DNA from: a virus
IMG/VR virus record: IMGVR_UViG_3300045988_151306
DNA length: 16,477 nt
Reading direction: 5' to 3' (one strand)
The notes under the pieces are model-generated. The model ran no database searches. It saw only the letters and a list, made by a program, of their open reading frames with translations, and was not told where the DNA came from. A program made the position numbers and the translations under genes. Each line of letters opens with the position of its first letter. The first letter of the stretch is position 1. Shown here piece by piece: positions 1 to 16,477 of this stretch.

Positions 1-55
1 CACAAAGAAACCCCGCGCACCTGATCTAGCCGAGTCCAGGCACGCGGGGTTGGGA
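1..55. repeat. Left inverted terminal repeat (ITR), 55 bp, exact reverse complement of 16423..16477
   Basis: Positions 1-55 (cacaaagaaaccccgcgcacctgatctagccgagtccaggcacgcggggttggga) equal the reverse complement of the last 55 nt of the window. Identity breaks at position 56 (t vs a). An internal 9-bp inverted repeat (aaccccgcg/cgcggggtt) lies inside the ITR. Confidence 0.9.
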
Positions 56-207
56 TGGGATGGCCCTTCGTTAGTATATGCCTTCAAGCTTCAGGAATCT
101 AGCCTTGTGCAGAGATGGACCGTTTACAAGATCTTGTGCGAACTTCAAGGCAGCCTCGATGCAAGAGAACACACGGCAACTTGAGCCGGGTCGAATTTGA
201 ACATCAA

Positions 208-1620
208 TTACGCGCTATAGCTACATGATCCGCCTACACCACCCATGTTACCGCTTGCTCCGTAAATGGAAAGCTGACCCGATGAATCAATGAAACCGAC
301 CTTTGTTGAGGTGCCGCTATTTGTATAGCAAATATATGACGTATTTGTTGACGGTCTCGCCCAGCCCGGTGCTTGAGCGGATGCATAATTTGGAATGTCA
401 CCTCCGATTTGGAACGTGACGACTCCGTTTGATAATGTGAAGTTTGCAGGCGCGCCGGCAAAATTCACACACCCTTGTTCGAAGCGCCCGTTATACGATC
501 CTTCGATGCCCTGATAGAGAAAACCGGCAATTATTTTCGCGCCCTTTTCATTAGGGTGTATATCACTCGACGGAAAACAGTCTGTGCGCCCCTTCAACCA
601 CGTCCAAGCGTGGTTTAAAACTATAGCTTTAAAATTAGCAAGCTCGTTGCAAACATAACTGCATTCCAGTTTGTCATCGTTCGAAAGCGGAGTTGAGTCG
701 TAGAGATAAGGGGCAACCACAACTTTAGCGTCCGGCCAGTTGTTATTGATAACGCTGAAACAGTTATCAACCGCAGCTCTGGCCTGCTGCTCCGTGATGA
801 TGTCGTTTCGTCCTCCACATATAACGATCAAGTTAGGTTTAAGCTTATCGTTCGCGGCTTTCTGCAGCTGATTCTCAAACTTCTTGCCATTGACGTTCCA
901 TCCGGCGCCGCTGACACAATAATTGTGAAGCGTGCACCCGGGAATGAGCTTCGAGAGCTGGTAAGCCCAGGAGCGTTCTTGCGGCGTTATATCGCCATAT
1001 GAATCGCCGATAGTAAGCAGTACGGTTTTAGTATGCGTTTGTATATCGGCCAGGGCAGCTTGCACAGCGTTAGGCGTGATGCCACCGTCGGTCTGCGCTC
1101 CAACTGCGTTGTAGAGCTTTACGTGTCCGTAATTGGTGGAGTTGCCTACACCATACGTCGTTGCCGTGCTCGCATGGCTGATAGGCGCCTTAGTGCTAAC
1201 TTCCGTTCGGACTGCCTGCACAGCGTTGGGCGTGATGGCCCCGTCGGTCTGCGCTCCGACTGCGTTGTACAGCTTTACGTGGCCGTAATTGGTGGAGCTG
1301 CCCACTCCGTACGTCGTTGCCGTGCTCGCGTGGCTGATAGGTGCCTTGGTCGCAATGCCATTCGCGTTCTGCGTAATCCGCTCGTCAAACCGCGCCACCT
1401 CTGTTCGGTACTGTTCGATTTGAGCGTTATAGTTTCCCGTAAGAGCCCAGTATTCTTCATTAGAGATAAGAATTCCGGCTGGCACGAATTGACGAGACGT
1501 GTATGAATTGCCTTCGTTGTAGACAATCGTCAATGGCTCGTAACTCTTCGATGAATCCCACTGCAGAGGGTCTGCAAACAGGGGCACGTAACGCGCGCCG
1601 ATATATTGCGTGACTGCCAT
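208..1620 (-). CDS. Tail fibre / receptor-binding protein with C-terminal SGNH (GDSL) hydrolase domain and an internal 52-aa tandem duplication
   Basis: 470-aa ORF with ATG at 1620. SGNH blocks are present: LLTIGDSYGD (block I), VICGGRND (block III), SSDIHPNEKG (block V, DxxH). The N-terminus (QYIGARYVP...WDSS...YxxxSxxxVPAGI...EYWAL) resembles conserved virion-anchor N-termini of Gram-positive phage fibres. It is the last gene of the structural operon, in the position of the phi29 appendage genes. Confidence 0.65.
   Translation of the reverse strand: MAVTQYIGARYVPLFADPLQWDSSKSYEPLTIVYNEGNSYTSRQFVPAGILISNEEYWALTGNYNAQIEQYRTEVARFDERITQNANGIATKAPISHASTATTYGVGSSTNYGHVKLYNAVGAQTDGAITPNAVQAVRTEVSTKAPISHASTATTYGVGNSTNYGHVKLYNAVGAQTDGGITPNAVQAALADIQTHTKTVLLTIGDSYGDITPQERSWAYQLSKLIPGCTLHNYCVSGAGWNVNGKKFENQLQKAANDKLKPNLIVICGGRNDIITEQQARAAVDNCFSVINNNWPDAKVVVAPYLYDSTPLSNDDKLECSYVCNELANFKAIVLNHAWTWLKGRTDCFPSSDIHPNEKGAKIIAGFLYQGIEGSYNGRFEQGCVNFAGAPANFTLSNGVVTFQIGGDIPNYASAQAPGWARPSTNTSYICYTNSGTSTKVGFIDSSGQLSIYGASGNMGGVGGSCSYSA
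1039..1350. repeat. Two tandem copies of a 156-bp unit (52 aa each, TKAPISHASTATTYGVG[S/N]STNYGHVKLYNAVGAQTDG[A/G]ITPNAVQA...) inside the fibre gene
   Basis: Direct repeat units at 1195..1350 and 1039..1194 are about 90% identical by eye. The antisense ORF 1033..1506 is an artefact of this repeat. Confidence 0.85.
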
Positions 1621-1632
1621 TTTAAGTCGTTC

Positions 1633-1872
1633 CTATTCCGTATCGTCGCTATTACTCAGAGGCGTGTACAGGGTTACTTTGATTTTGTCGATGTTGGTAG
1701 TTGCGTCGTTAACTTTTGCAACCAGCTCGTTAACTTTTGTAGCCAGCTCGTTAATTTTGTCGACGTTGGTAGTTGCGTCGTTAACTTTTGCAACCAGCTC
1801 GTTAATTTTGTTGATTGCTTCAACGGTGGACGGCCTTAGATTTTTGCCGAACTTGATGGGTTGAATTGCCAT
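1633..1872 (-). CDS. Small coiled-coil repeat protein (fibre-associated or assembly protein, function unknown)
   Basis: 79 aa, ATG at 1872, preceded by AGAGAGAGG. Its start overlaps the TAA of the upstream gene (gttaacATG). A heptad-like repeat INELVAKVNDATTN(V/I)DKI occurs twice. Confidence 0.6.
   Translation of the reverse strand: MAIQPIKFGKNLRPSTVEAINKINELVAKVNDATTNVDKINELATKVNELVAKVNDATTNIDKIKVTLYTPLSNSDDTE
1683..1806. repeat. 72-bp periodic direct repeat (two near-identical 52-bp cores) within the small coiled-coil gene
   Basis: ttttgtcgatgttggtagttgcgtcgttaacttttgcaaccagctcgttaa recurs 72 bp later with 3 mismatches. Confidence 0.8.
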
Positions 1873-1873
1873 G

Positions 1874-2443
1874 TTAACCTCTCTCTGTTAGCGATGTATA
1901 AACGGTGTGTTGCAGCTCACGTATTTCGCTTTGCAGCTTTGCGATGTCTGCAGACGGGTCTTTAATCCCGTAATTAGGCGCGGTGTTGTCTATGACTCCT
2001 CGGCCCGATGTGTTGTATTTGAGCAAAAGTCTTCCGTAACTATCGGTGCCGTACACGGCGCCAGTGTCGAACGTGATGTCTGCCCATGAATCCGGCACGT
2101 AAGCGCAGAAACGGCCGTCGGATGTGAGTCCGAAGAAAACCATGTCGGCGAACGTATCCCACAATTGTAGAAGGTTGTCGTTGATCCACTGCTCTATCTG
2201 CGCGGCGTAGTAGTCTTCGAACCCGGACTCCATGAACTTATGCATAAGCTCTTGTAGCTCGGCGATCGCCTTGCTGTTCGCGTTCACCTGCGCGTCAGCC
2301 TCGTCGATGTGTCCGCGCAGGGCCTCGATGATGCAGTACAGATTGGCGATGAGTTGTTCTGGACTTTTGACCTCCCAATACAGCTTAGGAAGCGTCGGAT
2401 TCGTCAACATCCACGGATTAAATGGTGTAAGTGGGTTGTACAT
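1874..2443 (-). CDS. Putative tail fibre / appendage protein
   Basis: 189 aa, ATG at 2443 with GGGAGGTGA RBS. It sits downstream of the portal and collar candidates in phi29-like order. No motif was recognised with certainty. Confidence 0.45.
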   Translation of the reverse strand: MYNPLTPFNPWMLTNPTLPKLYWEVKSPEQLIANLYCIIEALRGHIDEADAQVNANSKAIAELQELMHKFMESGFEDYYAAQIEQWINDNLLQLWDTFADMVFFGLTSDGRFCAYVPDSWADITFDTGAVYGTDSYGRLLLKYNTSGRGVIDNTAPNYGIKDPSADIAKLQSEIRELQHTVYTSLTERG

Positions 2444-2511
2444 ATGCTTTCACCTCCCATCGGTTCCCATCATAGTATACACACTCGCGATCTGCGTCCA
2501 TGCGAGCCTCT

Positions 2512-3060
2512 TTACCACAGCGGTACGGTCGGAACCATAATTCCGGTGAACAGCACGTGCTCCAACTCGTCGAGGATCAATACGTCCACGTCGTTCCACG
2601 TTCGGGCGAATTGCACCGCGAGATTCGCGGCGTTGCCCTCGTGGATAACGTCCGCCTCGCGGTCATTGCCGGTCGATGCATAATCGGAGTTTCCGGAAAG
2701 CATCGTCTCGGGGAAGTCCGAGAAGATATCGCGCGACTTCGAGCGCTCGCGCCCGTCCTGAAACGGATTCACGCCCTGCTCAACGCGTTCATAGAGAAGC
2801 TTGTATTTCGGCATGATCTCGTTGAGCTTGCGCAGATACGCGCGTTTCCAGCGTGAGGGCGTGATGATGGACACCTCGCGGTCGTAGAAGCGGTTTAGGA
2901 ACTTGCGACAAAGCTGCGTGTATTGCAAATCGCTGTAAGCGTCGAAGCGCCAAGAATCATCCTCGAACGGCCGATAGAATCCCATTTCATACCACTCGCC
3001 AAGGGTGATCGTCATACCGTCGTAACGTGCGTTAGTGGGAACATCGGAAAAGTCGAACAT
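2512..3060 (-). CDS. Putative lower collar / tail tube protein (positional analogue of phi29 gp11)
   Basis: 182 aa from ATG at 3060 (MFDFSD...) with RBS GAGAGGAG 6 nt upstream. An alternative in-frame ATG at 3075 would overlap the portal gene. The function call rests on synteny only. Confidence 0.4.
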   Translation of the reverse strand: MFDFSDVPTNARYDGMTITLGEWYEMGFYRPFEDDSWRFDAYSDLQYTQLCRKFLNRFYDREVSIITPSRWKRAYLRKLNEIMPKYKLLYERVEQGVNPFQDGRERSKSRDIFSDFPETMLSGNSDYASTGNDREADVIHEGNAANLAVQFARTWNDVDVLILDELEHVLFTGIMVPTVPLW

Positions 3061-3061
3061 G

Positions 3062-3997
3062 TCAACTCCTCTCAATAAGCGTGTCGTAGCGGTGCCGCAT
3101 GTCGTAATTGTCGGTGATGTTGTCGCGCGCCCACACCACGGTCACAGGTTCCGTCAACCTGCCACCGAATCGCGCATTGAGCTTATCGCACGCGGCTCTG
3201 CGCGTGGTGAGCGGTGAAAGGCGCGCGAGCTCGGTCGGCTGCATGGTCGAGTTTACCTCGTCCTCGATCATGCGCTCTTCCTTGAATGGCATGGAGTCGA
3301 TGCCCAGCTCGCGGTAGATCGCATCCCACGTGTTAGCCCAGTCCTGCTGGAGTTTGTCCCCGATATACTCCTTGGCGCGCTCGGGCATGGTCGCGCTGGT
3401 CTGGATGTCGCTAAAGTTGTCATATGCGAGGACGAAAGGCTCGCCGTTGGCTATGTTCTTGTAGAAGTTCTGCACGTCGAATGCGCGGTCTTGCGGCCCG
3501 GTGATGACCAATGGCATGCGCATGTGATAACGGTTGATCTGCTTCGTGCGCATGATGTCGGTCAGCTCGCGCGCCCATATGTTAATCTTGACCATGAGCG
3601 GGTAGCGCGTCGAATTGTCCCAAATCCATACGCCGTTCGTCCAATTGCATAGAAAATCGGTCTTACCGGTCGCGCCAATCGCGCGCCATGCACGAGGCTC
3701 GTCGTACATGTTCGGCGCGCCCTGCTGCACGCATTTGAGCGATAAAAGCGTATCACTGGTGAGCGACGGATATGCGAGAGTTGCGGCTCCCTCAGTTAAT
3801 AGTACCCATTCCAGATAACGTTCGTTGCACGTCTCGGGGAGTCCCACCCAGCGGAAGCGCGATAGAGCAAGCTCGATAAGGTCGTTTTGGAACATGTTGA
3901 ACAACTGCTGGTTGTACGCTTCGGTTTGCCAGTACGTCGCTTGCTGTCCCGGCCTGAACGGTTTTTTCTGCTTGTAGCCCCTGCGGCCCTTGCTCAT
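3062..3997 (-). CDS. Head-tail connector / portal protein (phi29 gp10-like)
   Basis: 311 aa (phi29 gp10 is 309 aa). By-eye alignment to phi29 gp10: F-R-W-VGLPET vs FEWENLPPT, EERMIEDEVNSTMQPTE vs KKERMVTDEVSSNDEQIE, AACDKLNARFG vs EACEKINELYG. RBS AAGGAGGT lies 6 nt before the ATG at 3997. Confidence 0.85.
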   Translation of the reverse strand: MSKGRRGYKQKKPFRPGQQATYWQTEAYNQQLFNMFQNDLIELALSRFRWVGLPETCNERYLEWVLLTEGAATLAYPSLTSDTLLSLKCVQQGAPNMYDEPRAWRAIGATGKTDFLCNWTNGVWIWDNSTRYPLMVKINIWARELTDIMRTKQINRYHMRMPLVITGPQDRAFDVQNFYKNIANGEPFVLAYDNFSDIQTSATMPERAKEYIGDKLQQDWANTWDAIYRELGIDSMPFKEERMIEDEVNSTMQPTELARLSPLTTRRAACDKLNARFGGRLTEPVTVVWARDNITDNYDMRHRYDTLIERS

Positions 3998-3998: not shown

Positions 3999-4262
3999 TT
4001 AGACCTCCTTGTAAACGATCTGCGCTTGCAAAGCGGCTTTCATGGATTCTAGCGCGTCGCGCTGCGCGGCTGTCTGCCTCTCTATAAGCGCCGTCATAAG
4101 CGCGTCGTGCGCTTGCGCATCTTTGCCCACGGTGGCCTCGCGTCGCGCGCGCTCGACCTTGTAGGCGATGAGCGCGTCGATCTCCGCGTCGCTCATGTTC
4201 TGGTACGTCCCGGCATTCAACAGTGCGTCGATGTCGGGTTTAGGCTCGATCAAGTCCGGCAT
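3999..4262 (-). CDS. Hypothetical small helical protein between tail knob and portal genes
   Basis: 87 aa, ATG at 4262 with strong RBS AAGGAGG. phi29 has no counterpart at this position. Confidence 0.55.
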   Translation of the reverse strand: MPDLIEPKPDIDALLNAGTYQNMSDAEIDALIAYKVERARREATVGKDAQAHDALMTALIERQTAAQRDALESMKAALQAQIVYKEV

Positions 4263-4271: not shown

Positions 4272-6698
4272 TTAAAAGTTGTCGTAAATGCTAACGCGGC
4301 CTATCTCCTCGGGCTTGTCCCAAACGGTCACGCCCTTAATGAGTATATCCTTTACAGCGGCCTGCGCGCCCTCCACGACGTCACCGGTGCCGCTGCACCA
4401 TACCTCTGTGCATTTCCAATAGGTGAAGTGCCGCATGACCTGCATCCGCTCCATGCTCCACTCGCGCATGAGCGTGTATCCGTAGCGCGCGAAGGCCGAT
4501 GCCGCATTCATGATGTCGCATTCACGTTGCGTGACGATCTGCGCGAACAGCGCGCGCGGTGCGGTCGCGCTCGATCGTCCGTTTGCGCCTACGCCGAACT
4601 GCACCGGCGCCGCGACGCCCGCCTGCTTCAAACCGGCATTGATCGCGTCAATCGCGGTCGCGTACGCGCGCCCCGCATTCGCATCTCCAGTTTCCTTTGA
4701 ACGCCCCGCGTTTGCGTCTCCGGTGGACTTCGAGTTGTCCGCGTTGGTGCGCGTGAGCGTGGCGCTTGCGTTTGCGCTGTATGTGCTTGCGTCGTTGCGT
4801 ATGTTGGTGTTGCTGGTGGCCGTCTCGCTCTGAATGCCGTAAGTGGCCGCGGTGTACTGCATGGCGTGCAATGTCTTTTCAAGTGAGTTGGACTGCGCGA
4901 GCCCTGCGGCTCGAACGTTGCTCGATTGCGAGACCGCCGCAGCTGCGTTTGCAGACGGGAAAGATACTGCCATGTCGGTAACGCCGCTCACGGCTGCGGT
5001 CGTGGCTCCTGCAGCTCCGCCGAAAAGGCCCCCCGTGACCACGCTTCCGATGGTTCGCGCGGCTGCGGTCGCGTTGTTGTTCGCGGTGGTTATCGCGATA
5101 ACGTCGTTCTTGAGGTCCGCCATAGATGTCGATGTCGCGTTGTCGCTGTCGCAGTCTGCTTTCAGTTTTTGATTTGCGGCGGCGGCTCCATTTAAGGCCG
5201 CTGCGTTTGCGTTGGTCGTGATGGAGTTGTTCGCGTTTACGTTCACGCGGTTCACGTCGACGATGTTCGCGGCAACGTTGTTCGCGTTGGTTTGCGCGGT
5301 GGCGTTAGACGCAAGCGCGTTGGTGTACGCGGTCGCGTTAGATGCGAGCGCGGAGGCCTGCGCGTTGTCCGCTGCGAGCTTCGCATGAGCGCGGTTGTAC
5401 ACGGTCGTGTAATCGGCACGGCTCGCCGCGCTCTGCGTGACCTGCATGATGGGGAGGTTCCAGCTCTTAAGGTACTCACCCCAAGCACCGCCGAAGTCGT
5501 ACGTGCGGCCCTCCATCGTCTGAAACGTGAGGGTATCGGTCGCACCGGCGATGTCAAGCAAACGCGCGTCGATGGATATGTAGGGCATGATCAAGTTCAC
5601 GGCGCTCGCGATCTCGATGCCATGCGCGCCCAAGTCCTCCACACGCACGATGGAGGATCGCCCGCGCTCGTCGCTCACGCGGATCGCCGCGTAAGGGTAG
5701 GTATAGAGCTTTGCGAACGGGGCTGCTTGTGTTGGATAGCCGAAATCCGAAATACCCGGCCGCAAAAGCGGCTCGACCTTCTGTACCGCGTCGCACACGG
5801 TGACGGTCACTCCCCACATCGTTAAACCGCCTGACTGCGTGAGCAAGTCGGCGGGCGCGAAGAACACGCCCTGAATGGTCTGTTTGACCCACGGCGCGTT
5901 CTGCTCCATCGCGCGCAGGAACTTCTGCAGATCGCCCACCGCAACGGAATACACGCGAGACGCGAGGATACCCGACGTCTCCGGCTCGGAAAGCGCGGGC
6001 ACGGTCGGTGCGGATGCCGTGCCTAAATCGCCCTGCAGATCGCACGTTGTCGCGATGCACGCGCGCTGGGTCGCGGCGCTGTAATTCTTGACGGCGCGGC
6101 TGCGCTCGATGTAGGGTTCCCCACCGGTGTTCACGTCCGCCGTGAGCAGGTAGGTGGAATTGTCTTTCGGGTCGGCGAGGTAATCGGCGATGGGCGATGC
6201 CGCGACGGGGGCGTGCCCGCGTTCGAGCAGTATGTAATCGAATCGCATGTCATTGATGTAGGTGGTCCACATGTCCAGTTCGAGAACAAGGCGCGTGGAG
6301 TTCGGTGAGAGCTGCTGCGCGTCCAAAATGAAATAGAAGTAACGCGCCTTGCGCTCGCCGCTCGCGTGCTCGATGGGTTGCGCGTCGCTCGTCATGCGCG
6401 GGAGATCGACCACGATGTAATTGTAGACCTGCGCGGATGTCACCGGCACGGGTACCTTGGCGCTTCCATCGGGCTTGACGTTGAACATGGTCTCGAGATT
6501 CACCACGTCACCGGAAAGCGCGTCAAACCACTCATCGCGCTTGGCGTCGTTCTCGAACTTCACGACGTTCTCGTAATCCCCGCACCACGGGACATTGCAC
6601 ATTTTGAGTCGGGCGGTCGGCTTGAACCTCGAATAGTCGAACGTGTTTTCGTATGCGTACACGTCCACGTTTCCGAGATTAGGGAAATCCGCATTCAT
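4272..6698 (-). CDS. Tail knob protein (phi29 gp9-like) with a greatly expanded Ala/Asn/Thr/Ser/Gly-rich low-complexity region
   Basis: Similarity to phi29 gp9: YFYFILDAQ..LVLELDMWTTYINDMRFDYILLERGH vs [35 protein letters not shown], and C-terminal FARYGYTLMR / GVTVWDKPEEIG vs FHKYGYKINR / GITLWHTDNIG. The hydrophobic Gly/Ala loop IGSVVTGGLFGGAAGATTAAVSGV (about 4950..5060) corresponds to the gp9 membrane-active loop. Of two adjacent ATGs (6704, 6698), the second has correct AGGAGG spacing. Confidence 0.85.
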   Translation of the reverse strand: MNADFPNLGNVDVYAYENTFDYSRFKPTARLKMCNVPWCGDYENVVKFENDAKRDEWFDALSGDVVNLETMFNVKPDGSAKVPVPVTSAQVYNYIVVDLPRMTSDAQPIEHASGERKARYFYFILDAQQLSPNSTRLVLELDMWTTYINDMRFDYILLERGHAPVAASPIADYLADPKDNSTYLLTADVNTGGEPYIERSRAVKNYSAATQRACIATTCDLQGDLGTASAPTVPALSEPETSGILASRVYSVAVGDLQKFLRAMEQNAPWVKQTIQGVFFAPADLLTQSGGLTMWGVTVTVCDAVQKVEPLLRPGISDFGYPTQAAPFAKLYTYPYAAIRVSDERGRSSIVRVEDLGAHGIEIASAVNLIMPYISIDARLLDIAGATDTLTFQTMEGRTYDFGGAWGEYLKSWNLPIMQVTQSAASRADYTTVYNRAHAKLAADNAQASALASNATAYTNALASNATAQTNANNVAANIVDVNRVNVNANNSITTNANAAALNGAAAANQKLKADCDSDNATSTSMADLKNDVIAITTANNNATAAARTIGSVVTGGLFGGAAGATTAAVSGVTDMAVSFPSANAAAAVSQSSNVRAAGLAQSNSLEKTLHAMQYTAATYGIQSETATSNTNIRNDASTYSANASATLTRTNADNSKSTGDANAGRSKETGDANAGRAYATAIDAINAGLKQAGVAAPVQFGVGANGRSSATAPRALFAQIVTQRECDIMNAASAFARYGYTLMREWSMERMQVMRHFTYWKCTEVWCSGTGDVVEGAQAAVKDILIKGVTVWDKPEEIGRVSIYDNF

Positions 6699-6710
6699 GA
6701 ACATACCTCC

Positions 6711-8472: not shown

Positions 8473-8684
8473 GCGCTTACTCCTTTCGTGTATATAAGTT
8501 GAGCGCGACCACGCGAGGTTGTTACCTGCGTAGTCGCGCTCATTATAACGCATGGCGAAGCTGAGGCACGTTCCATTGAAACACGTAGCCAACTCGCGCG
8601 GGGTTCGGGTACCGACTGAACGGTACAGCTTCCCGAATCATCCCTACTCACGGATTTTCGTGCTCGCCGTCGCTCGCGTCACAT
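8473..8684 (-). promoter_or_regulatory. 212-nt non-coding region between the packaging ATPase and scaffold genes: late-promoter candidate (-10 TATAAT at 8542..8547, weak -35) followed by a 10-bp-arm inverted repeat (8500..8509 / 8533..8542). Also a candidate locus for a packaging RNA
   Basis: No ORF with an RBS. A perfect TATAAT on the minus strand directly abuts tgagcgcgac...gtcgcgctca. A second hairpin gtaccg-ttcagt-cggtac lies at about 8600..8620. The position is equivalent to the phi29 late A3 promoter upstream of gene 7. Confidence 0.4.
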
Positions 8685-9755
8685 TTACTTTACCCCATAC
8701 AAAGCCATCGCGTCTAGGAAACCTTCGCGCACCTTCACACTCTCAAAAAGCACGCTCCCCTCGTAATACATCTGAACGATCACCCTAAGCGTCTTGCTAA
8801 CCCGCTGCGCTGCGATGCGGTTTGGGGTGTTGTCCTTGCGCGTTAGCGCGTACACGTTACCCGCGTTATTTGGTATCTTTCCGGTGACGTGGTAGTACCC
8901 TTCGGAAATGTCAATCCAGATTCCGTACTCCGTTCCCATATGAACGCACCCCATGACGTACTTCGCGCGCGGGGGCTTCTTGGCGATGTAACGGTTATCC
9001 TCGGCGAAGTCGTTCGCGTAGGTTGCTTTTGCGTAACCGGTCACCCGCCCCATTCGACCCGCAAGGGTGTGCTCCATGCGGTAAGCATCGTGCTCGTCGG
9101 ACTCAACGATGTGCAACAGGCACATCTTGTCGAGATACCACGTGTACCCGAATTTAGGTACGCCAGTCACACCAAACGCGGCGAAATAAGGATTAATCAA
9201 GTCAACTGCGTTGCCCAACAAGAACAGACGCGGCTTCACGCGATTCTCGTTATAGGCGTCCTCGCGCGCCAAAGAATCGATCATGCGGCTCAACGTATTC
9301 CATTCATCGCGCTTGTACTGATGTGAGCTGTCGATTTTTTCCATAATGGCCTCGTCGAAAATAATATTCTCGACGTTTACGAACGTGCTTTTTTTCGCTC
9401 GCTGCAATTCGGCGAAACCGACTATGTAACCACACGTCTTCCACGGCGTGCCCTTCTTCGAGTTCTTCGGGCGGTATTTGAACTCGTCCGCCTTGCACAT
9501 ATATTCATAGGCGCTAAATTCATCATCCGTGGCGATGAGCTTGTCAAAATAACTATGCTTCACCGCGTCGCGCTCGTTTAAAGTGCGGCACACCTCCACG
9601 AACCTCTGATCTTTCTTGATCGCGCGGTTGAGCGCATAGGCGCGAAGTCCGTATGTCTTTCCCTTGTTCGGCGCGCCGACGACCATAGTGATGTCTGCGT
9701 TGTAGGAAAGCGTTTTTTCCCAGTTGTAATGCACGCCGTCATTAAGATTTACCAT
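8685..9755 (-). CDS. DNA packaging ATPase (phi29 gp16-like encapsidation protein)
   Basis: 356 aa. Walker A is GAPNKGKT and Walker B is ENIIFDEA. Matches to gp16: KTLSYNADITMVVGAPNKGKTYGLRAYALNRAIK vs KMLSYDRILNFVIGARGIGKSYAMKVYPINRFIK, and LLGNAVDLINPYFAAFGV vs CLSNAVSVVNPYFLFFNL. The start overlaps the pol stop (ATGA-type coupling). Confidence 0.85.
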   Translation of the reverse strand: MVNLNDGVHYNWEKTLSYNADITMVVGAPNKGKTYGLRAYALNRAIKKDQRFVEVCRTLNERDAVKHSYFDKLIATDDEFSAYEYMCKADEFKYRPKNSKKGTPWKTCGYIVGFAELQRAKKSTFVNVENIIFDEAIMEKIDSSHQYKRDEWNTLSRMIDSLAREDAYNENRVKPRLFLLGNAVDLINPYFAAFGVTGVPKFGYTWYLDKMCLLHIVESDEHDAYRMEHTLAGRMGRVTGYAKATYANDFAEDNRYIAKKPPRAKYVMGCVHMGTEYGIWIDISEGYYHVTGKIPNNAGNVYALTRKDNTPNRIAAQRVSKTLRVIVQMYYEGSVLFESVKVREGFLDAMALYGVK

Positions 9756-12250
9756 TGCGCTTCATTCCCTTCATCGTCTATATACGTGTAGGTCGCCCGA
9801 TCGTCCTCAATATCTATTACGCGCTCTGTGGTGTCAACCGCGCGCCCGTACCGCTCTCGCATGTACGCGATGGTGCGGGCGTTGCCACCCTTATCCGCGT
9901 CTCCCAACAAGCGCTCGGACGGATACAGCGCGATTGACTCGTGCGTATGCACGTGGGACGTTTGCCCCGTGTAGTCGGTTATGTCCATGTCCAGCACGTC
10001 CGCCGCTGCCGGACGGTAATGCTCCAATGCATGGCAAACCGGTTGCGAGACGCGAACGCCCCATCCCAACACGCGTGGGGCCACCTCCTCGAATCCATGC
10101 ACCGCGCTCATGTCATCAATCCAATTCTCGATGTGATACATACCCGTCGGTCGCGATAGGCCCGCGCATGTGATGTGCGCGTGATGCCCGTCCCAGCTCA
10201 CGCGCGCCTTGTTCCAAGCGTCCATGTGCATGGGGTACGCCTCGCCCTCGACCTCGAATGTGCCAACTCCGGTGAGCGGTGAGGCGTAATCGGGGAAGTT
10301 CTTGCGCACGCGGCTCATGCATAGGTCGATTGATGCCGTCACCGCCTCGTGAAACGGAGCTAGTGCCCGCATGAGATCGCTTGCAGAAACATCTGCATCG
10401 CATGAGATTTTAAGTGAATCGGTGTCACCTCCCAGCACGCGCACGCGCTCGCCGAACGACTTATATACAAGCTCGATTGCCGCGACGATCGCCATGCGGG
10501 AACCTCCGACGATGCGAAGGCCGTAAGGATATAGAACGAGCTTCTTCTTAGCGTCCTCATAATGCTCCTTATATGTCTCGCGTGTTACGATCGTGTCACG
10601 ATCAACGCATATCTCACCAGCATCGACCTTGTATGCGCATTTGAACACGTCTTGCGCCTCCATTCCGTAAATCGAATTAAACATTCCCTTGACGGTGGAA
10701 TTGTAATAGGCCTCGAGGTCTGCGCGTTCCATCGCACCGCTGCGGATGCGCTCGGCGATTCCCTCGGGGATGCTGCCTGGTATCTCGCGCGTGTACGGCT
10801 CTCCCGTCTCGTATGTCTTAAGGATCTGCTTGCAAGCGTCCTTGCGCGCATAGAACAGATTAGACAACAACGTCACGTAGTCCGGCGGCTTAACGAAGCT
10901 CATTGTCCCCTCGCCTAAAATTACCTCCATCGCATCCCAGGCATACACGCGGCTCATGCACCACAGCTCCAGCTCAGAGACGTTCACGATGCACGACGCG
11001 GCTTGAACGAGCTTGCCGAACGCGAAGCGGCCGTTTTCGGCCACGTCCACGTACCCGGCACTGCGAACCGCCGTCACGGTGTCGCGGTCCGCCTCGCCTC
11101 CCCACTCGCCCAGCTGTCCGGAGCCCTTGAACTTCGCTTCGGATAGCAACGCGATGTCCCAGGACTCGAACGCGCTCCCCTCACGCAAGCGGAGGTTCTT
11201 GAACCTGATTTGCGCGTGGAACGCGTACCCGAAAGGCTCTTCCCAGTGCCGCATCGCCTGATCTAAATCAGTGCTGCAAACGCCCTCGGCCATCGCCTGC
11301 AGGATGCTCGGGAGGACGCCGCGAAAATTAACCGGCTGCATGTGGCCGTTGATGTAAGCATGGTGAGCGGACGTCTCGTCGATGCTGTAAACGTTTTTCT
11401 GCACGATGCCGGAATACCGCGCGGAGGTGAACGTGAAGCCTCCCCTGAAACACGCCTTACGCAGTGCGTATTGCGCGTAAGTCGGGGCGAGTTCCTCGGC
11501 ACACATGCGCTCGAACGCCGCTTGCACTGAGATCGGTTTGCCTTTTTCGCGCGGGATGCGCAGACGGCCAGTCTCCATCTTGCCCGCCTGACGCACAAGT
11601 GATGTCTTGGTCAGCACGCGCACGCCAAGCCATTCAGGCTTCAACCATTCATTCGATTCCAACAGATAACGCAGGTAAGCCGGAATCACCTCGGTGTCTC
11701 GACCTGCGTAATAAAGCTCCTCGTCGGTCAGCGGGGTTTCCGGAGTGCGAACCTTCGAGTAATCCCAATCACCAACGGCCTTCGGCAAACCGCACGTTTC
11801 TCCCATCTTCGCAAGTCCGCGCATCTCAAGATAAAAGGTGTCCCAGAACCGCAACTTGACCGCGCCGTCCTGCACGATGTCAACGGTGTATGCGCTCGTC
11901 GCGCTCTGCGCGCTCGCGACCATGTCCCAGCGCTCGTTAAGCTCGTACATGAGCGGTTGGAGGTCGAACATTAAGTTATAGGCGCATATGACCGGAATGC
12001 AATGCTCGTCTTCGCCCCACGTTATGTAATCGTCTATGACACGCTGCATGTCCTCGCCGTGCCGGTAAAACGACACGCGCCCCGAGCCCACCTCATATGT
12101 GCGCAGATCGCAACCGCGAACGTCATTCACGATGTAAAGCACCGGGTAGGCGCGCCACTGGTTCTCACGCTCGTCAATGCAGACGTTGCACGTCTCGGTG
12201 TCATACGCGGCTGCGATCTTGAATTGCGGTTTACGTTCCTTACACCCCAT
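9749..12250 (-). CDS. Protein-primed family-B DNA polymerase
   Basis: 833 aa. Exo I is YDTETCN, Kx3NSxYG is KGMFNSIYG, motif C is LGGDTDS. The size and inserted regions fit protein-primed PolB. It lies downstream of and translationally close to the terminal-protein candidate. Confidence 0.9.
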   Translation of the reverse strand: MGCKERKPQFKIAAAYDTETCNVCIDERENQWRAYPVLYIVNDVRGCDLRTYEVGSGRVSFYRHGEDMQRVIDDYITWGEDEHCIPVICAYNLMFDLQPLMYELNERWDMVASAQSATSAYTVDIVQDGAVKLRFWDTFYLEMRGLAKMGETCGLPKAVGDWDYSKVRTPETPLTDEELYYAGRDTEVIPAYLRYLLESNEWLKPEWLGVRVLTKTSLVRQAGKMETGRLRIPREKGKPISVQAAFERMCAEELAPTYAQYALRKACFRGGFTFTSARYSGIVQKNVYSIDETSAHHAYINGHMQPVNFRGVLPSILQAMAEGVCSTDLDQAMRHWEEPFGYAFHAQIRFKNLRLREGSAFESWDIALLSEAKFKGSGQLGEWGGEADRDTVTAVRSAGYVDVAENGRFAFGKLVQAASCIVNVSELELWCMSRVYAWDAMEVILGEGTMSFVKPPDYVTLLSNLFYARKDACKQILKTYETGEPYTREIPGSIPEGIAERIRSGAMERADLEAYYNSTVKGMFNSIYGMEAQDVFKCAYKVDAGEICVDRDTIVTRETYKEHYEDAKKKLVLYPYGLRIVGGSRMAIVAAIELVYKSFGERVRVLGGDTDSLKISCDADVSASDLMRALAPFHEAVTASIDLCMSRVRKNFPDYASPLTGVGTFEVEGEAYPMHMDAWNKARVSWDGHHAHITCAGLSRPTGMYHIENWIDDMSAVHGFEEVAPRVLGWGVRVSQPVCHALEHYRPAAADVLDMDITDYTGQTSHVHTHESIALYPSERLLGDADKGGNARTIAYMRERYGRAVDTTERVIDIEDDRATYTYIDDEGNEAQW

Positions 12251-12266: not shown

Positions 12267-12920
12267 CTACCCGAACATGACGACCCTTGATGCCCATATA
12301 GGCGAACCGATCAACTCAGCGTCGTATTCGACCTCGGAATAAAACGCCTCGTTCTCGTCGGTAAAACCCTCGACCTCGGAGGTCGGAACGCCTGATGCGA
12401 TCGCGGCTTTAAATGCCCGTTCGTTCGCGCGTAGAACCTTCTCAAACGCCTCGGAAAGCGATGACGCGCCTAAACCACGCATAATCAATCGGTTGCGCTC
12501 CTTAGGGTCTTTGCCGCGCCAATATCGACGCGTGGCCGCGTAAAAGACGTCAACGGCCTCCTTGCCGTGATCACCGAGTGTGCTTGGAGCTCCGATGCGC
12601 GCAAGATTGATTTGACGCTGAAAAAGCATGTCGGAACGCTCGCGCGAACTCTTGACCTTGCGAGGCGCGGAGGTCATGCGATCTAGTCGCTCGCCCGCGC
12701 TCTTCGCGCGTTTCTGCGCGCGCCGAACCTCCCGCACGTCTCGTGTGCCCTGATACGACTGTGTTATCTGCGCGCGCACGCTCTCCATGTAATCAGCTCT
12801 CGCGCGTTTCTGTGCGGTGCTCATACCGCTCACATCCTCGCGCTCCATGCGTGCCAGCAAACGCTTTGCGCGCCTGCGTGCGTTGTAAATCTCGTCCGAT
12901 GCGCGTTTAGCACGTGCCAT
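12267..12920 (-). CDS. Terminal protein (TP) candidate
   Basis: 217 aa from ATG at 12920 (MARAKRAS..., RBS GGAGG 8 nt upstream). The ORF-track extension to 12983 runs through a terminator hairpin. Very basic N-terminal half and acidic, Ser-containing C-terminus (EVEGFTDENEAFYSEVEYD) as in phi29 TP. It sits immediately upstream of pol as phi29 genes 3 and 2 do. Confidence 0.55.
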   Translation of the reverse strand: MARAKRASDEIYNARRRAKRLLARMEREDVSGMSTAQKRARADYMESVRAQITQSYQGTRDVREVRRAQKRAKSAGERLDRMTSAPRKVKSSRERSDMLFQRQINLARIGAPSTLGDHGKEAVDVFYAATRRYWRGKDPKERNRLIMRGLGASSLSEAFEKVLRANERAFKAAIASGVPTSEVEGFTDENEAFYSEVEYDAELIGSPIWASRVVMFG

Positions 12921-13008: not shown

Positions 13009-13422
13009 TTAAATCAATACGAGCGTCTTGCGAGAGTTGCCATTCGGGAGCGTGGAAGAAACGAGCTTCATAGGAACGATCTCGCCATCATCGAACAAAC
13101 CCGCTGCCATGAAGTTATCAGCTGCGTTGCGAACGCCCTCGGACTGCGAGAAATAGGCGGAACCATCGGCGCACACGATGGTGGTGTTCGTGCAAAGGGT
13201 GTCGATGCCGTTCTTGTCACGAGCGCGACGCACGCCCGGCTTGGTGAAAACGCCGATGACGTTAAGCGTCTCGCCCTCATGGTTGGAAAGCGACTCGGCG
13301 TTGTTCATGGCGTTGACCACGAGCTTGCGAGTCTCAGCGTCTGCGGGCTTGATTGAGGAATAGTTAGAAGGCGCGTACAAATCAGTGGAATCGACGGTTG
13401 CGAGTTGGTTGGTATCAGTCAT
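13009..13422 (-). CDS. Single-stranded DNA-binding protein (phi29 p5-like)
   Basis: 137 aa. TTIVCADGSAYFSQSEGVRNAADNFMAAGL resembles phi29 p5 TTIFAADGSLYSAISKTVAEAASDLIDL, and the C-terminal KLVSSTLPNGNSRKTLVL resembles p5 KVKVVQGTSSKGNVFFSL. This is from memory of the p5 sequence. Confidence 0.5.
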   Translation of the reverse strand: MTDTNQLATVDSTDLYAPSNYSSIKPADAETRKLVVNAMNNAESLSNHEGETLNVIGVFTKPGVRRARDKNGIDTLCTNTTIVCADGSAYFSQSEGVRNAADNFMAAGLFDDGEIVPMKLVSSTLPNGNSRKTLVLI

Positions 13423-13436: not shown

Positions 13437-13748
13437 CTAGAAGTCATTGACTTGTTTACCGTATGCGAGATTAATCTCACTTTTGCTGTTCTTGTAATCA
13501 ATTGCCGTTTGGACGAAAAGTTTCAGCGGAATGGAATAGTAATCAGAATCGACTTCAACGCTTGTGATTACAATTGAATTGTCATGCGTCCTGCGTCGCA
13601 ACGTGTTCGTTGCTTTTTGGACGTTGGAGTAATCGCCGATTAGCTCGAACTCAAAATCGACTAACTCGCCGGATTCCACGCGCTTACCCTTGCAATGGGA
13701 AAACGCGACGGTGCGGCCTATCATCCCACGTTCTAGTTTCTTTGGCAT
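13437..13748 (-). CDS. Hypothetical protein, AT-rich moron-like gene with its own promoter
   Basis: 103 aa from ATG at 13748 (MPKKLERG..., RBS GGGAAAGGGGG). Local GC is clearly lower than the flanking genes. No recognisable motif. Confidence 0.55.
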   Translation of the reverse strand: MPKKLERGMIGRTVAFSHCKGKRVESGELVDFEFELIGDYSNVQKATNTLRRRTHDNSIVITSVEVDSDYYSIPLKLFVQTAIDYKNSKSEINLAYGKQVNDF

Positions 13749-13830: not shown

Positions 13831-14499
13831 TTAATAATACGTGATGATTGGCTTGTAACCCTTCGAGCGGAGCTCACCGGCGAACTTCTCCGCGTTGGAC
13901 TTGATCGAGAACGCGCCCAACTGGACGCGGTAGAGCTTGCCCGGAGTGCTCGGGGCATCGGGCGTCTCGGGAGCGATGACGTTCGCGCCGATGCCAGCGG
14001 CTTGCAGGATACCGCGCGCCAGATCGTCCATCTGATTCATGAACTTTGCGCGATCACCGTCATTGGAGATGAAACCGCATTCAAGAAGCCGGTAATTCAC
14101 GCCCGCGCTCGCGGCTCGGTTCGGATTCGCCAAATCGGAACGGCCCACGATCGTGGAGGAACGCCCGGGAAAAAACGAAACGATGAAAGAGGCAAGAGCC
14201 TTATCGAACGCATCCGGGCTAAATCCCTTCTTGATGATGACGTGACCACCGCGCGCGGATGGTGCCGCGCTATCCATGTGAAGCTCAAGCACCATCGCGC
14301 CCTTGGGACACTGACCCTTGCCGATGCCGTTGGACTCATACCAATTAACGTCCATGTCGCCGATTTGAACATCGGAGGTGCCCAGATCTTTGATGCGCGC
14401 GGCGAGCTTGCGCACCAACGCGGCCTCGGTCTGACCTCCAGCGCACGCGCCTGAGTCTCCGGCTCCATGGCCGCAGATGATAAATAGCTTACAACTCAC
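13831..14499 (-). CDS. Endolysin: N-acetylmuramoyl-L-alanine amidase (Amidase_3) with C-terminal SPOR domain (CwlC-like)
   Basis: 222 aa. Amidase_3 signature ICGHGAGDSGA...E...LHMDS...RLLECGFISN. C-terminal SPOR-like segment YRVQLGAFSIKSNAEKFAGELRSKGYKPIITY. The start overlaps the holin stop. Confidence 0.8.
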   Translation of the reverse strand: MSCKLFIICGHGAGDSGACAGGQTEAALVRKLAARIKDLGTSDVQIGDMDVNWYESNGIGKGQCPKGAMVLELHMDSAAPSARGGHVIIKKGFSPDAFDKALASFIVSFFPGRSSTIVGRSDLANPNRAASAGVNYRLLECGFISNDGDRAKFMNQMDDLARGILQAAGIGANVIAPETPDAPSTPGKLYRVQLGAFSIKSNAEKFAGELRSKGYKPIITYY

Positions 14500-14681
14500 G
14501 CTTGCACCTCCGGGGCAATCGAATCCAGCTTCTCGGCGAGCTTGGTCATGATAAGGGTGTTCTCCTCGATGGTCTTGCGCATGTCTTCAATGGTCTTCGT
14601 GCTCGAATAAAACATCATAACAAACGCCGCGATGGGGAATGCCACGTTGCTCACCAACTCCGTAATCGCACTAATGTCCAT
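14496..14681 (-). CDS. Holin, BhlA/UviB family-like
   Basis: 61 aa from ATG at 14681 (MDISAITELVSNVAFPIAAFVMMFYSS...) with RBS GAAGGGAG. It has one N-terminal TM segment followed by a charged coiled-coil tail, like UviB/BhlA. It overlaps the endolysin start by 4 nt. Confidence 0.6.
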   Translation of the reverse strand: MDISAITELVSNVAFPIAAFVMMFYSSTKTIEDMRKTIEENTLIMTKLAEKLDSIAPEVQA

Positions 14682-14696
14682 GTACTTTCTCCCTTC

Positions 14697-14736: not shown

Positions 14737-14739
14737 GCC

Positions 14740-15168
14740 CTAGGAAAGATTATACACACGTTTGCGTCGGTCGCGCTCGCGCTTCAATTTGATTAACGCT
14801 TGCTCGTACCTGCGCCGTGCAAGTTTGAATTGATGAGCTCCGTGCCGCTCGCCCGTTGCCCATCGCGCTGCTGCGAACACACGCATAATCTCGGCCTTGT
14901 ACGTGTAGAACTTGATGAGTTCCGCGATGCCCTCATCAGGCCAGATGCGCAGGACGTTGCAATCGAGGTGCGTCACCTGCTCGGGCTTCACACGGGTGGG
15001 GTCGAACGCGCACATATGCGCGCATTGCAGCTCGCGCTCGCGCTTTAAAACGTGCTCGACGTTAACCAAATAAGGGTACAAGTCCGGATATACAGACTTG
15101 GCAATGTGCATGACCCAATCGCGGCGCACCGGAGTTGAGTTCTTCACAAGCCATGTAGAGACTTTCAC
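14740..15168 (-). CDS. Hypothetical protein with basic C-terminal tail (KLKRERDRRKR). Possible nucleic-acid-binding early protein
   Basis: 142 aa. GTG start at 15168 preceded by AAGGAA at 6-nt spacing. The in-frame TAA of the upstream gene is 4 codons before. Confidence 0.5.
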   Translation of the reverse strand: MKVSTWLVKNSTPVRRDWVMHIAKSVYPDLYPYLVNVEHVLKRERELQCAHMCAFDPTRVKPEQVTHLDCNVLRIWPDEGIAELIKFYTYKAEIMRVFAAARWATGERHGAHQFKLARRRYEQALIKLKRERDRRKRVYNLS

Positions 15169-15180
15169 GCGATGTTCCTT

Positions 15181-15414
15181 TTACACCAAATCGGGAATGA
15201 CCCCGAGCCGAAAGTAAATGTTGCAGAAAAGAACGATGCATATGAGAACGACGATTATTAGAGCGGATGTTAGGACGTAGAGCCAATTAGTCAGATGTTC
15301 GTTGAGCTCATATTGACGTTGCATCTTACTAGCTAAAACATGGTCAACTCTCACGACCATCTTGTAACACTGTTTAAGTGGTAGGCACTTCATATCCTTT
15401 TCAGTGTAAACCAT
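15181..15414 (-). CDS. Small membrane protein (single C-terminal TM segment), AT-rich
   Basis: 77 aa, RBS GGGGAAA. Hydrophobic stretch LYVLTSALIIVVLICIVLFC. GC is well below the genome core. Confidence 0.5.
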   Translation of the reverse strand: MVYTEKDMKCLPLKQCYKMVVRVDHVLASKMQRQYELNEHLTNWLYVLTSALIIVVLICIVLFCNIYFRLGVIPDLV

Positions 15415-15436
15415 ATTGTTTCCCCTTTCCCTTTAT

Positions 15437-15898
15437 TTAACGACTTATACACCCCTGAACTGCACTGGTGATGATTATAGGATCGCGTGAAGTTTCGATT
15501 GTGGACGTAATTATAAGCGGTGCTACGCGCTTGCTGCCCTTGCCATGGTGAAACTGCATATTCTTTGACCCCAACACCCTATGAGGTCGCATCGCGAGCG
15601 CGATACAAGCAGGGTCGTAGTAAGGAGGCATGCCGGAGAAATTGCGATCGTCAGGATCATAATCAAGGATTGCATTGAAGGTGCGCGCGCGATCCATGTA
15701 TGCGATTGAATGGCCGAAAAGCGCTTTGAAGATGCTGCCCGGTTGGTACAGGCCCTCGATTCGATGCATGACGTATGTATTAGTTACGTAAATTACCCGA
15801 TTATGAACGCACACGCAATCAAATGGCGCGTGCGTCCCAGGCTTGCATGTGCACGCACATAAGGCGCGCCATAGAGCATTTGTCTCGGTCTTGTTCAT
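15437..15898 (-). CDS. Hypothetical Cys/His-rich protein (first gene of the right-end leftward operon)
   Basis: 153 aa from ATG at 15898 (MNKTETNALW..., RBS AAAGGGGAG). Cys cluster CACTCKPGTHAPFDCVCVH. No confident family assignment. Confidence 0.5.
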   Translation of the reverse strand: MNKTETNALWRALCACTCKPGTHAPFDCVCVHNRVIYVTNTYVMHRIEGLYQPGSIFKALFGHSIAYMDRARTFNAILDYDPDDRNFSGMPPYYDPACIALAMRPHRVLGSKNMQFHHGKGSKRVAPLIITSTIETSRDPIIITSAVQGCISR

Positions 15899-15933
15899 GT
15901 GCTCCCCTTTCATGGAGTTGGTACGTGGTTATT

Positions 15934-15961
15934 ATTTTAATGAACGTGAGCATAATTGCAA
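15934..15961 (-). promoter_or_regulatory. Candidate early promoter for the leftward operon (-35 TTGCAA at 15956..15961, 16-nt spacer, -10 TAAAAT at 15934..15939)
   Basis: Located in the AT-rich 129-nt divergent intergenic region. Confidence 0.4.
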
Positions 15962-15982
15962 CTTGTTTTTTGTTGTTACGAG

Positions 15983-15991
15983 TGTTAATAT
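15983..15991 (+). promoter_or_regulatory. Candidate extended -10 promoter (TGtTAATAT) for the rightward gene
   Basis: TGnTAATAT lies about 37 nt upstream of the ATG at 16028. No good -35. Confidence 0.3.
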
Positions 15992-16027
15992 AGTTGTGTC
16001 AGGAAAGGAAGCGGGAAGGAGCTTCAG

Positions 16028-16396
16028 ATGATCGTTTACGAGTACACCAAGGATTGCGGTGATGAGACTCACACCGCGAACATTTACATCAATCGCGGTC
16101 ATATCTGGGTTTCCATCCAGGCCGCAAACAAAAGTTACGAGTACGACGTTAACACGCTTGAGGCAGCAACCGATCTTGTATTCAAGTACGGATTTGTTGA
16201 AGCTGATGGACCTATCGAGGTGATTGAAAAAATGACTACCTATAAGCAGTTCGACGTGCGCTATTTTGACTTCGCATACAACAACGAGCGCACGCGTACG
16301 TTCTCCGATCTCTCCGACGCGATGGAGTTCATGGAGTGGATCGTGTTGTGTCGTAAGCATCAGATGCGCTTCATTGCGCTCGAAAGTGTATACTAA
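16028..16396 (+). CDS. Hypothetical acidic protein, the only plus-strand gene, transcribed toward the right terminus
   Basis: 122 aa. RBS GGAAGGAG 7 nt before the ATG. The stop is 27 nt before the right ITR. GC is lower than the core. Confidence 0.6.
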   Translation: MIVYEYTKDCGDETHTANIYINRGHIWVSIQAANKSYEYDVNTLEAATDLVFKYGFVEADGPIEVIEKMTTYKQFDVRYFDFAYNNERTRTFSDLSDAMEFMEWIVLCRKHQMRFIALESVY

Positions 16397-16422
16397 GCCT
16401 CGCGCCCTCGTGCGCACCCCAT

Positions 16423-16477
16423 TCCCAACCCCGCGTGCCTGGACTCGGCTAGATCAGGTGCGCGGGGTTTCTTTGTG
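16423..16477. repeat. Right inverted terminal repeat (ITR), 55 bp
   Basis: Reverse complement of 16423..16477 is identical to 1..55. The window therefore appears to span a whole linear replicon. Confidence 0.9.

Follow-up and report, generated by a model that had tools for sequence, protein, structure and literature searches.

The viral sequence of 16,477 nucleotides recorded in IMG/VR as IMGVR_UViG_3300045988_151306 (GC content 55.6%), called the window here at its whole length, is very probably the nearly complete linear double-stranded DNA genome of an uncultivated, protein-primed, phi29-like podophage of the human gut, whose inverted terminal repeats (ITRs) have been clipped by the assembler. 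This reading is carried by sequence that continues alike past both ends of the window, by contig breakpoints that track the k-mer length (k) of each assembler, by a single terminus found in the relatives, and by a family-B DNA polymerase (PolB) of the phi29 type. The main value of re-examining the record lies in the corrected ends. About 80 bp per end, the replication origins included, are in all likelihood missing from the window, which would hold ~99% of a genome of ~16.64 kb. The missing 80 bp per end would be essential for reconstituting replication or packaging, or for booting uncultivated phages from synthetic DNA.

Terminal repeats and the ends of the genome

Positions 1–55 of the window (CACAAAGAAACCCCGCGCACCTGATCTAGCCGAGTCCAGGCACGCGGGGTTGGGA) are the exact reverse complement of positions 16423–16477, as the original prediction had stated, and the identity is lost from base 56. 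A perfect match of 55 nt placed exactly at both termini would arise by chance with a probability of ~4^-55, and the window carries no direct terminal repeat. Past 55 nt the two ends are only patchily alike, with one indel followed by a common TTAGTATA box. The repeat is real, yet its length of exactly 55 is no biological property. The left (1..55) and right (16423..16477) copies are stubs of a longer ITR, of which each keeps the 55 bp nearest the unique sequence, and on the left the outer ~80 bp lie outside the window. Exact searches of IMG/VR with the ITR and the outer-ITR sequence gave no match, so the set searched does not contain the window.

Contigs from other assemblies show what lies beyond the edges. 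One of them, L039 (ENA ERZ654221 NODE_5699, 1,844 nt), is 100% identical to window positions 1–1771 (1771 nt) and runs 73 nt past position 1; across the left edge of the window it reads GCCTAAATCTACTCCTACCATGCCCCCGCTATACTTGTCAACACGCGACACAAAACAAACACAACACACTCGA, directly followed by CACAAAG, and the outer ITR sequence beyond CACAAAG is GCCTAAATC...CTCGA. At the other end, L047 (ENA OQBJ01004625 NODE_4625), from a strain of 93–96% (~95%) identity, spans the right end and goes on for 35 nt past position 16477; these 35 nt (CAACACGCGACACAAAACAAACACAACACATTCGA) equal the left-end extension with one mismatch. Since the sequences past the two ends are alike, the repeat continues outward at both ends. 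The original prediction of a complete linear replicon is therefore upheld as to linearity and bounding ITRs but not as to completeness, because the contig ends are not the physical ends: at least 73 nt on the left and at least 35 nt on the right are absent.

The positions at which contigs break off explain the figure of 55. Logan contigs of the same strain, assembled with k=31 (L040 and L041), stop at window positions 26 and 16452, exactly k-1 = 30 nt inside the repeat. A SPAdes contig with 99% nucleotide identity to the window (UABL01000488 NODE_488, 16,479 bp) stops 55 nt into the repeat, like the window itself, and two relatives (L031 and L014) likewise stop at exactly 55. The breakpoints thus track the k of each assembler, as is expected of de Bruijn contigs at a collapsed repeat. 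In the proposed course of events, a de Bruijn-graph assembler with k = 55, meeting a genome of the form ITR-U-ITR', would have merged the two ITR copies into one edge and emitted the unique body with exactly k repeat bases at each end. L039 runs through the repeat because the right-end contig of that low-coverage assembly (L044) stopped before it. The ITR is consequently not 55 bp, as first proposed, but at least 128 bp and probably ~135 bp, and it most likely starts with 5'-ACATATTGCC.

This has a bearing on other viral contigs. When a contig is flanked by an inverted repeat exactly as long as a common assembler k (55, but also 31, 77, 99 or 127), the ITR has been collapsed. Repeats of this kind are no measure of the ITR, the genome does not end where the contig does, and inferences about origins or sliding-back drawn from them are unsafe.

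Termini of the relatives

Thirty-seven IMG/VR relatives (L002–L038) with a PolB identity of 76–94% were retrieved. Six contig ends of this clade begin exactly at 5'-ACATATTGC, others are 1–9 nt short and none goes beyond, and the motif is found at left and at right contig ends. In a scan of all IMG/VR for AACTTTGTTAGCCCCCC, 18 of 18 clade matches lie 4–34 nt from a contig end and point inward. Two internal matches to the terminal 17-mer in IMG/VR (L064 and L065), considered as evidence for a junction or a circular form, were rejected because they belong to unrelated contigs. The likely true terminus of the clade, judged from these sequences, is 5'-ACATATTGC. In the closest relative (L002, ~86% nucleotide identity), whose contig starts with ACATATTGC, the homolog of the 55-mer lies 120–175 nt from the contig end. 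The alignment of L039 with L002 begins at nucleotide 8 of L039, so ~7 nt (ACATATT) are still unseen for the window phage. Where both ends of a relative have been assembled, the ITRs measure ~100–140 bp (L006, L020, L028 and L030) or 484–488 bp (L010 and L035). The re-examination thereby defines the likely terminus of the clade and the anatomy of its ITRs, and it supplies candidates for the terminal protein (TP) and the packaging RNA (pRNA).

The end deduced in this way, 5'-ACATAT, places T at template positions 1, 3 and 5 and has no homopolymer and no exact di- or trinucleotide repeat. The TP would prime with dAMP at the 3'-T of each end, and the template end proposed for formation of TP-dAMP is 3'-TGTATAACGG. 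The analysis makes no claim about the mode of initiation (sliding-back) at this end. The earlier suggestion that a 5' end of CACAAAG serves sliding-back or jumping-back initiation has to be abandoned, as CACAAAG lies ~80 nt inside the genome and is the complement of the U-tail of a putative terminator.

Two further features were seen near the termini. A C-run preceded by G or AG occurs in the clade (TTAGCCCCCC, nucleotides 24–33), in Actinomyces phage Av-1 (GTGCCCCCC, nucleotides 8–16) and in phi29 (AAGCCCCCACCC, nucleotides 6–17), which could be a common origin feature or a coincidence. The contig ends of two relatives (L003 and L017) carry the Nextera transposase adapter (AGATGTGTATAAGAGACAG), an untrimmed contamination in public viral contigs.

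A terminator-like hairpin within the repeat

Within the ITR, the 55 bp retained in the window appear to form an intrinsic terminator that faces outward and is conserved across the clade. On the left (1..52, minus strand), RNA folding gives a hairpin with a stem at ~11–52 and a U-tail at 10–1, which would end the late operon; on the right (16426..16477, plus strand) its mirror copy lies 3' of a gene for a protein of 122 residues. Read outward, the element consists of a GC-rich hairpin of 17–18 bp followed by UUUCUUUGUG, with a folding energy of -30 to -34 kcal/mol and z scores of -3.3 to -4.4. At two positions of the stem the outward strand has G.U where the inward strand would have C.A, and the fold of the inward strand is weaker, at -25 kcal/mol. 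The left element stands after the last gene of the long minus-strand operon and the right element after the only plus-strand gene. All ITRs of the clade have a GC hairpin of differing sequence at the same place, followed by TCTTCTTGTGCG or TTTCTTTGTGCG; the ITR of L002 has two such units of hairpin and tail, and the stem in the window differs in sequence from that of the main clade. The U-tract is interrupted, which makes the terminator non-canonical, and a simple terminator scan missed the element in the ITR. The first bases of the window (CACAAAGAAA) are accordingly the complement of the tail of this putative terminator, ~80 nt inside the genome, and not a template reiteration. The retained 55 bp would act as RNA, stopping the late operon on the left and the 122-residue gene on the right before transcription runs off the end of the DNA.

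The inner boundary of the ITR is marked by the same right-end gene. This gene (16028..16396, plus strand, 122 residues) is transcribed outward, is the only plus-strand gene, has a good ribosome-binding site (RBS; GGAAGGAG) and is called in several assemblies. The TTAGTATA box just inside both repeats is, at the right end, its stop region (...LESVY-stop). At the left end, positions 71..178 (minus strand) hold a decayed copy of its C-terminal 35 codons (tblastn 36% identity, E 6e-4, LEGIY-stop vs. LESVY-stop), a remnant of a formerly longer ITR. Of the two long ITRs, 484 bp in L010 and 488 bp in L035, that of L010 was translated; it (1–484) contains a homolog of the gene, which is thus present at both ends of L010. 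The decayed left copy and the gene within the ITR of L010 together imply that the inner edge of the clade's ITR shifts during evolution, by growth as well as by erosion. Perfect identity between the two ITRs of the window phage now stops at the terminator.

Replication proteins

The gene at 9749..12250 (minus strand) encodes a family-B DNA polymerase of the protein-primed type with 833 residues, identified by PHROG 1907 (3e-22), by its motifs and by a structural match of its AlphaFold2 model. It has no Pfam match and no PDB sequence match. Aligned to phi29 gp2, it shows Exo II, Exo III, RGGFT and motifs A, B and C in order, with ~220 residues after motif C vs. ~115 in phi29 gp2. The nine best PDB matches of the AlphaFold2 model (pLDDT 88.4, pTM 0.86) are all phi29 DNA polymerase, with E values of 6e-17 to 1.4e-14 and target-normalised TM scores of 0.64–0.71. 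Among these are 1xhx_A and, in first place, 2ex3_A (2EX3), the complex with the terminal protein, while RNA- or DNA-primed family-B enzymes match the model only at ~1e-7 to 1e-6. The structural match, together with the ordered motifs and the PHROG 1907 match, supports the original assignment as a protein-primed PolB. Of the 1,745 matches to the PolB family, the best 120 lie on contigs of at most ~21 kb.

Directly upstream of PolB is the TP candidate (12267..12920, minus strand, 217 residues), proposed from synteny and composition. The predicted structure is all-helical; the N-terminus is very basic, and the C-terminus, acidic and disordered, contains invariant Ser, Thr and Tyr (S181, T187, Y194, S206 and S211), which are candidates for the priming residue. 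Its homologs number 277 with E <= 1e-3, and the best 120 of these 277 are 70–100% identical; a contig of 16,839 bp carries an identical protein, and the contigs recovered through exact protein matches are shorter. In OP549880.1 the homolog (32% identity, 3e-6) is likewise just upstream of PolB. No likeness to known TPs was detected by phmmer against PDB, by hhalign against the TPs of phi29 and Av-1, or by Foldseek with an AlphaFold2 model (pLDDT 66). A 2024 review of the phi29-like group notes that HHpred recognises TPs only when the phages are very closely related (PMC11476376), and the negative result is for this reason uninformative. The candidate named by the original prediction therefore stays plausible by position, size, charge and synteny, although similarity to known TPs in sequence or fold does not support it.

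Two further genes of the replication module follow. The gene at 13009..13422 (minus strand) encodes a gp5-like single-stranded DNA-binding protein (SSB; Pfam Phi29_Phage_SSB 5e-6, PHROG 6243 1.4e-7), and the one adjoining it (13437..13748, minus strand, 103 residues) a possible p6-like double-stranded DNA-binding protein, with a weak match to PHROG 6370 (1.4e-3). In the proposed mechanism, the gp5-like SSB would help strand displacement, and the unit-length TP-DNA would be packaged by the gp16 ATPase and the connector.

Alternative explanations

A window that is the whole replicon, with an ITR of exactly 55 bp and a CACAAAG end giving a 3'-GTGT reiteration for sliding-back or jumping-back, would account for the perfect inverted repeat placed exactly at both ends and for the second assembly, of a strain with 99% identity, that ends at the identical nucleotides. 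It is nevertheless extremely improbable, for identical or near-identical contigs run 73 nt and 35 nt further into sequence common to both ends, the breakpoints move with k (30 nt for k=31, 55 nt for SPAdes), and CACAAGAAGA-type sequence is an internal conserved feature ~50–80 nt inside the ITRs of relatives. Another view, that the terminal repeat is purely an artefact of assembly or library preparation (fold-back chimeras or palindromic reads) in a genome lacking an ITR and perhaps circular or permuted, finds some footing in a repeat length equal to a default k-mer, in the deposition of OP549880.1 as circular, and in the Nextera adapter at contig ends of some relatives. Such an artefact is hard to reconcile with one terminal sequence at both ends in many independent contigs (SPAdes-named ENA, Logan k=31 and IMG/VR relatives), with a terminal motif that is internal in no contig of the clade, with the lack of a direct terminal repeat, with a protein-primed PolB and a gp16-type ATPase that imply unit-length linear DNA, and with cultured relatives that have long ITRs, and we regard it as very improbable. 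A linear genome with clipped ITRs is thus the preferred reading. Some points weigh against it. For the window itself, k = 55 is deduced from the pattern across assemblies; no single contig of the exact strain has the full ITR at both ends, and the right extension comes from a strain of ~95% identity. The outermost 7 nt (ACATATT) are taken from relatives, not seen for the window phage. The TP is a candidate by synteny and composition, covalent linkage of the ends and activity of the terminator are predictions, and OP549880.1, the GenBank record nearest to the window, is a circular deposition.

A separate question is whether the 55-bp element is mainly a signal at the level of DNA for replication (a single-stranded DNA hairpin, a protein site or an internal origin element) rather than a terminator. 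The element is inside the ITR and can form a hairpin on both strands, its tail (TCTTCTTGTGCG) shows more conservation than a plain U-tract would need, and the interrupted U-tract is a weak terminator consensus that the simple scan did not list. The G.U pairs, however, favour the outward RNA strand (-30 to -34 vs. -25 kcal/mol), at either end the element comes immediately after the last gene that reads outward, and the stem sequence varies between subclades while the structure and the tail are kept. A mainly replicative function thus seems unlikely, though a role of the hairpin in DNA could coexist with termination.

A structured RNA next to the ATPase gene

The gap of 212 nt between the genes for the gp16 ATPase and the scaffold-like protein (8473..8684, minus strand) contains a conserved structured RNA, with a three-way junction, a TATAAT box and a second hairpin. 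Its fold has an energy of -87.4 kcal/mol and a z score of -4.25. In an alignment of 26 clade members, compensatory double changes occur at 23 of the 59 predicted pairs and 97% of cells are paired; covarying pairs in the controls were 8.4 +/- 1.8 for shuffles and 3–8 for slid controls. The 5' and 3' ends are joined by a closing helix, which meets two hairpin arms at a three-way junction (~140 nt in all, 8540–8684); 3' of this unit come a TATAAT box that does not vary, another GC hairpin and an RBS. The G.U pairs assign the RNA to the coding (minus) strand. A scan of Rfam gave no pRNA or other family at E <= 1, and inspection of the alignment revealed no loop-loop complementarity. The element is a possible candidate for a pRNA, followed by a late promoter or leader.

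Other genes of the window

All long open reading frames (ORFs) except one are on the minus strand. The left part of the window encodes the tail fibre or receptor-binding protein (208..1620, minus strand), with an SGNH (GDSL) esterase domain (Pfam Lipase_GDSL_2 2.4e-11) and a weak phage fibre repeat. Conservation with L002 and L003 is lowest in the fibre region. Within the fibre gene, a tandem duplication of 142 nt (window 1053–1350, 89% identity) gives two copies of a repeat of ~52 residues. Two small genes of the structural module (1633..2443, minus strand; 79 and 189 residues) were recognised as ORFs with weak coiled-coil or tail matches, and the one of 79 residues contains repeats of 59 nt (1679–1809) that encode a coiled-coil, heptad-like repeat. 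They are followed by the gp11-like lower collar or adaptor (2512..3060, minus strand; PHROG 5472, 2.3e-6; a gene of 182 residues in other assemblies), the gp10-like upper collar connector or portal (3062..3997, minus strand; Pfam Phage_connector 3.3e-24, PHROG 2038 1.6e-41), an ORF for a protein of 87 residues that is also called in other assemblies (3999..4262, minus strand), and the gp9-like tail protein (4272..6704, minus strand; PHROG 2248, 1.3e-34). The major capsid protein (MCP; 6779..8155, minus strand) is of the phi29 type (Pfam Phi29_MCP 8.3e-84), with a C-terminal Ig-like domain. Next to it, an acidic protein of 100 residues (8170..8472, minus strand), called in other assemblies, has no family match in searches of Pfam and PHROG profiles, and its position suggests a scaffold role. 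The gp16-like DNA encapsidation ATPase (8685..9755, minus strand; Pfam Podovirus_Gp16 4.1e-36, PHROG 2150 1.4e-54) completes this part.

Beyond the replication genes, the window encodes an endolysin with Amidase_3 and SPOR domains (13831..14499, minus strand; Pfam 2.4e-12 and 3.2e-7), a holin of 61 residues that is also a gene call (14496..14681, minus strand; PHROG 4898, 6.2e-10), and three early genes of 142, 77 and 153 residues (14740..15898, minus strand), seen as ORFs and gene calls and lacking family matches in profile searches; gene callers place the start of the ORF at 15437–15913 further into the frame. In its catalytic domain, the endolysin is 57–58% identical to the lysins of Clostridium phages CS266P1-4, its best phage matches, though the capsid module resembles actinobacterial phages. 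An inference of the host from the endolysin was rejected, as matches in genome collections are weak and scattered and point to no clear host. The host class may be a high-GC gut Gram-positive.

The single-strand gene array is split by three strong canonical terminators found by the terminator scan (all on the minus strand), one after the MCP gene (6720–6749), one after the SSB gene and just upstream of the start of the TP gene (12944–12969), and one ahead of the holin gene (14707–14734). The second of these implies that an ORF of 238 residues is really the 217-residue gene of the TP candidate, and it coincides with the one sub-threshold match to an Rfam small RNA. No integrase, host genes or tRNAs were found in the window. 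The absence of integrase and host flanks, the phi29-type gene set and the restriction of the relatives' terminal motif to contig ends agree with the original view that the window is not a prophage fragment.

Comparison with known phages

The closest relatives form a gut clade (L002–L038 and UABL01000488.1 NODE_488) of 14–17 kb with a GC content of 54–62% and a PolB of 833 residues that is 76–94% identical to that of the window. The terminus, the C-run and the terminator hairpin of the ITR are common to the clade and the window, whereas the tail-fibre region and the early genes diverge and the ITR ranges over ~100–490 bp. The closest GenBank phage is OP549880.1 (Bacteriophage sp. UC074V2_C064, from a vaginal metagenome; L001), with 44% identity in PolB and 48% in MCP and a length of 15.8 kb; its GC content is 37% vs. 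56% in the window, and its late module has the opposite orientation to its replication module. At positions 15461–15800 it has two perfect inverted arms of 150 nt around a non-palindromic spacer of 40 nt, between diverging gene blocks. These arms look like the ITRs of a linear genome that were probably fused or closed artificially by assembly. A whole-window megablast against GenBank phages gave no match.

Different modules of the window phage have different nearest relatives, Gram-negative phages for PolB and actinobacterial phages for MCP. The nearest cultured relatives of PolB (tblastn, 21–25% identity, with 22–25% for the astrithr-like phages) are phages of ~11.5 kb from Gram-negative hosts, namely Salmonella phages astrithr and assan and phages of Enterobacter, Vibrio, Acinetobacter and Pectobacterium; no Bacillus, Streptococcus or Actinomyces phage was among the matches of the PolB search. 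The MCP is 31–38% identical to those of actinobacterial phages of Curtobacterium and Arthrobacter, of Actinomyces phage Av-1 and of the Bifidobacterium phages of Badaztecvirus. In Av-1 (Dybvigvirus) the ITR measures ~210 bp, almost every gene is on one strand and the order is ssb-TP-pol, and BadAargau2 has ITRs of 227 bp and most genes on one strand. However, the PolB of the actinobacterial phages has ~470–570 residues and no BLAST match to the 833-residue PolB of the window, hhalign aligns the Av-1 pol only to the exonuclease part, the TP is unrelated in sequence and the terminal sequences differ.

Streptococcus phage Cp-1 (Madridviridae) is a phi29-like phage with ITRs of 236 bp and TP-primed replication with sliding-back. 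It differs from the window phage in its low-GC host, and the window has no detectable nucleotide similarity to any phage record. With phi29 the window phage has in common the fold of a protein-primed PolB, a gp5-like SSB, the MCP, the connector, the gp16 ATPase, a TP gene (a candidate in the window) beside pol and a linear genome with ITRs, but phi29 has ITRs of 6 bp and a PolB of 572 residues, its early and late operons diverge, and its pRNA is encoded at the left end. By sequence, the PolB of the window gives no significant match to phi29 DNA polymerase.

The clade could be a family-level phi29-like lineage with a new TP family and an enlarged PolB, a new class of pRNA encoded directly behind the packaging ATPase gene, and terminator-bearing ITRs with a non-reiterated 5'-ACATAT... 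terminus, but this is a tentative and rather doubtful proposal. Were it true, a TP family resembling no known TP in sequence or predicted fold would be paired with an 833-residue PolB, and a terminus devoid of the homopolymeric reiteration used in the sliding-back of phi29, Cp-1 and PRD1 would imply a different recovery of the terminal nucleotide.

Of the defining features of the phi29-like podophages (Salasmaviridae, Guelinviridae, Rountreeviridae, Madridviridae, Dybvigvirus and others), the window has the MCP, the connector and the tail and collar proteins, a gp16-type encapsidation ATPase (Podovirus_Gp16 4.1e-36), a protein-primed PolB (AlphaFold2 model vs. phi29 DNA polymerase) and a linear genome of ~11–20 kb with ITRs, while for the TP and the pRNA it offers candidates. 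By these features the window phage is phi29-like, operating in the manner of phi29, Cp-1 and Av-1, and the original description of a phi29-style linear, protein-primed phage is borne out by the MCP, connector, ATPase and SSB and by the match of the PolB fold. It lies outside Salasmaviridae and Dybvigvirus, from which it departs in sequence relationship, in the length of the ITR and in the layout of its genes. The close core proteins, ITRs of 6–8 bp and divergent early and late operons of Salasmaviridae are not those of the window, and its likeness to Av-1 (MCP 32%, ~150 hhalign columns in PolB, an unrelated TP) is below that of a common genus. A 2024 review catalogues 2,115 phi29-related sequences, with many human-gut metagenome-assembled genomes among them (PMC11476376). 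The present comparison places a widespread human-gut phage clade firmly among the protein-primed phi29-like phages.

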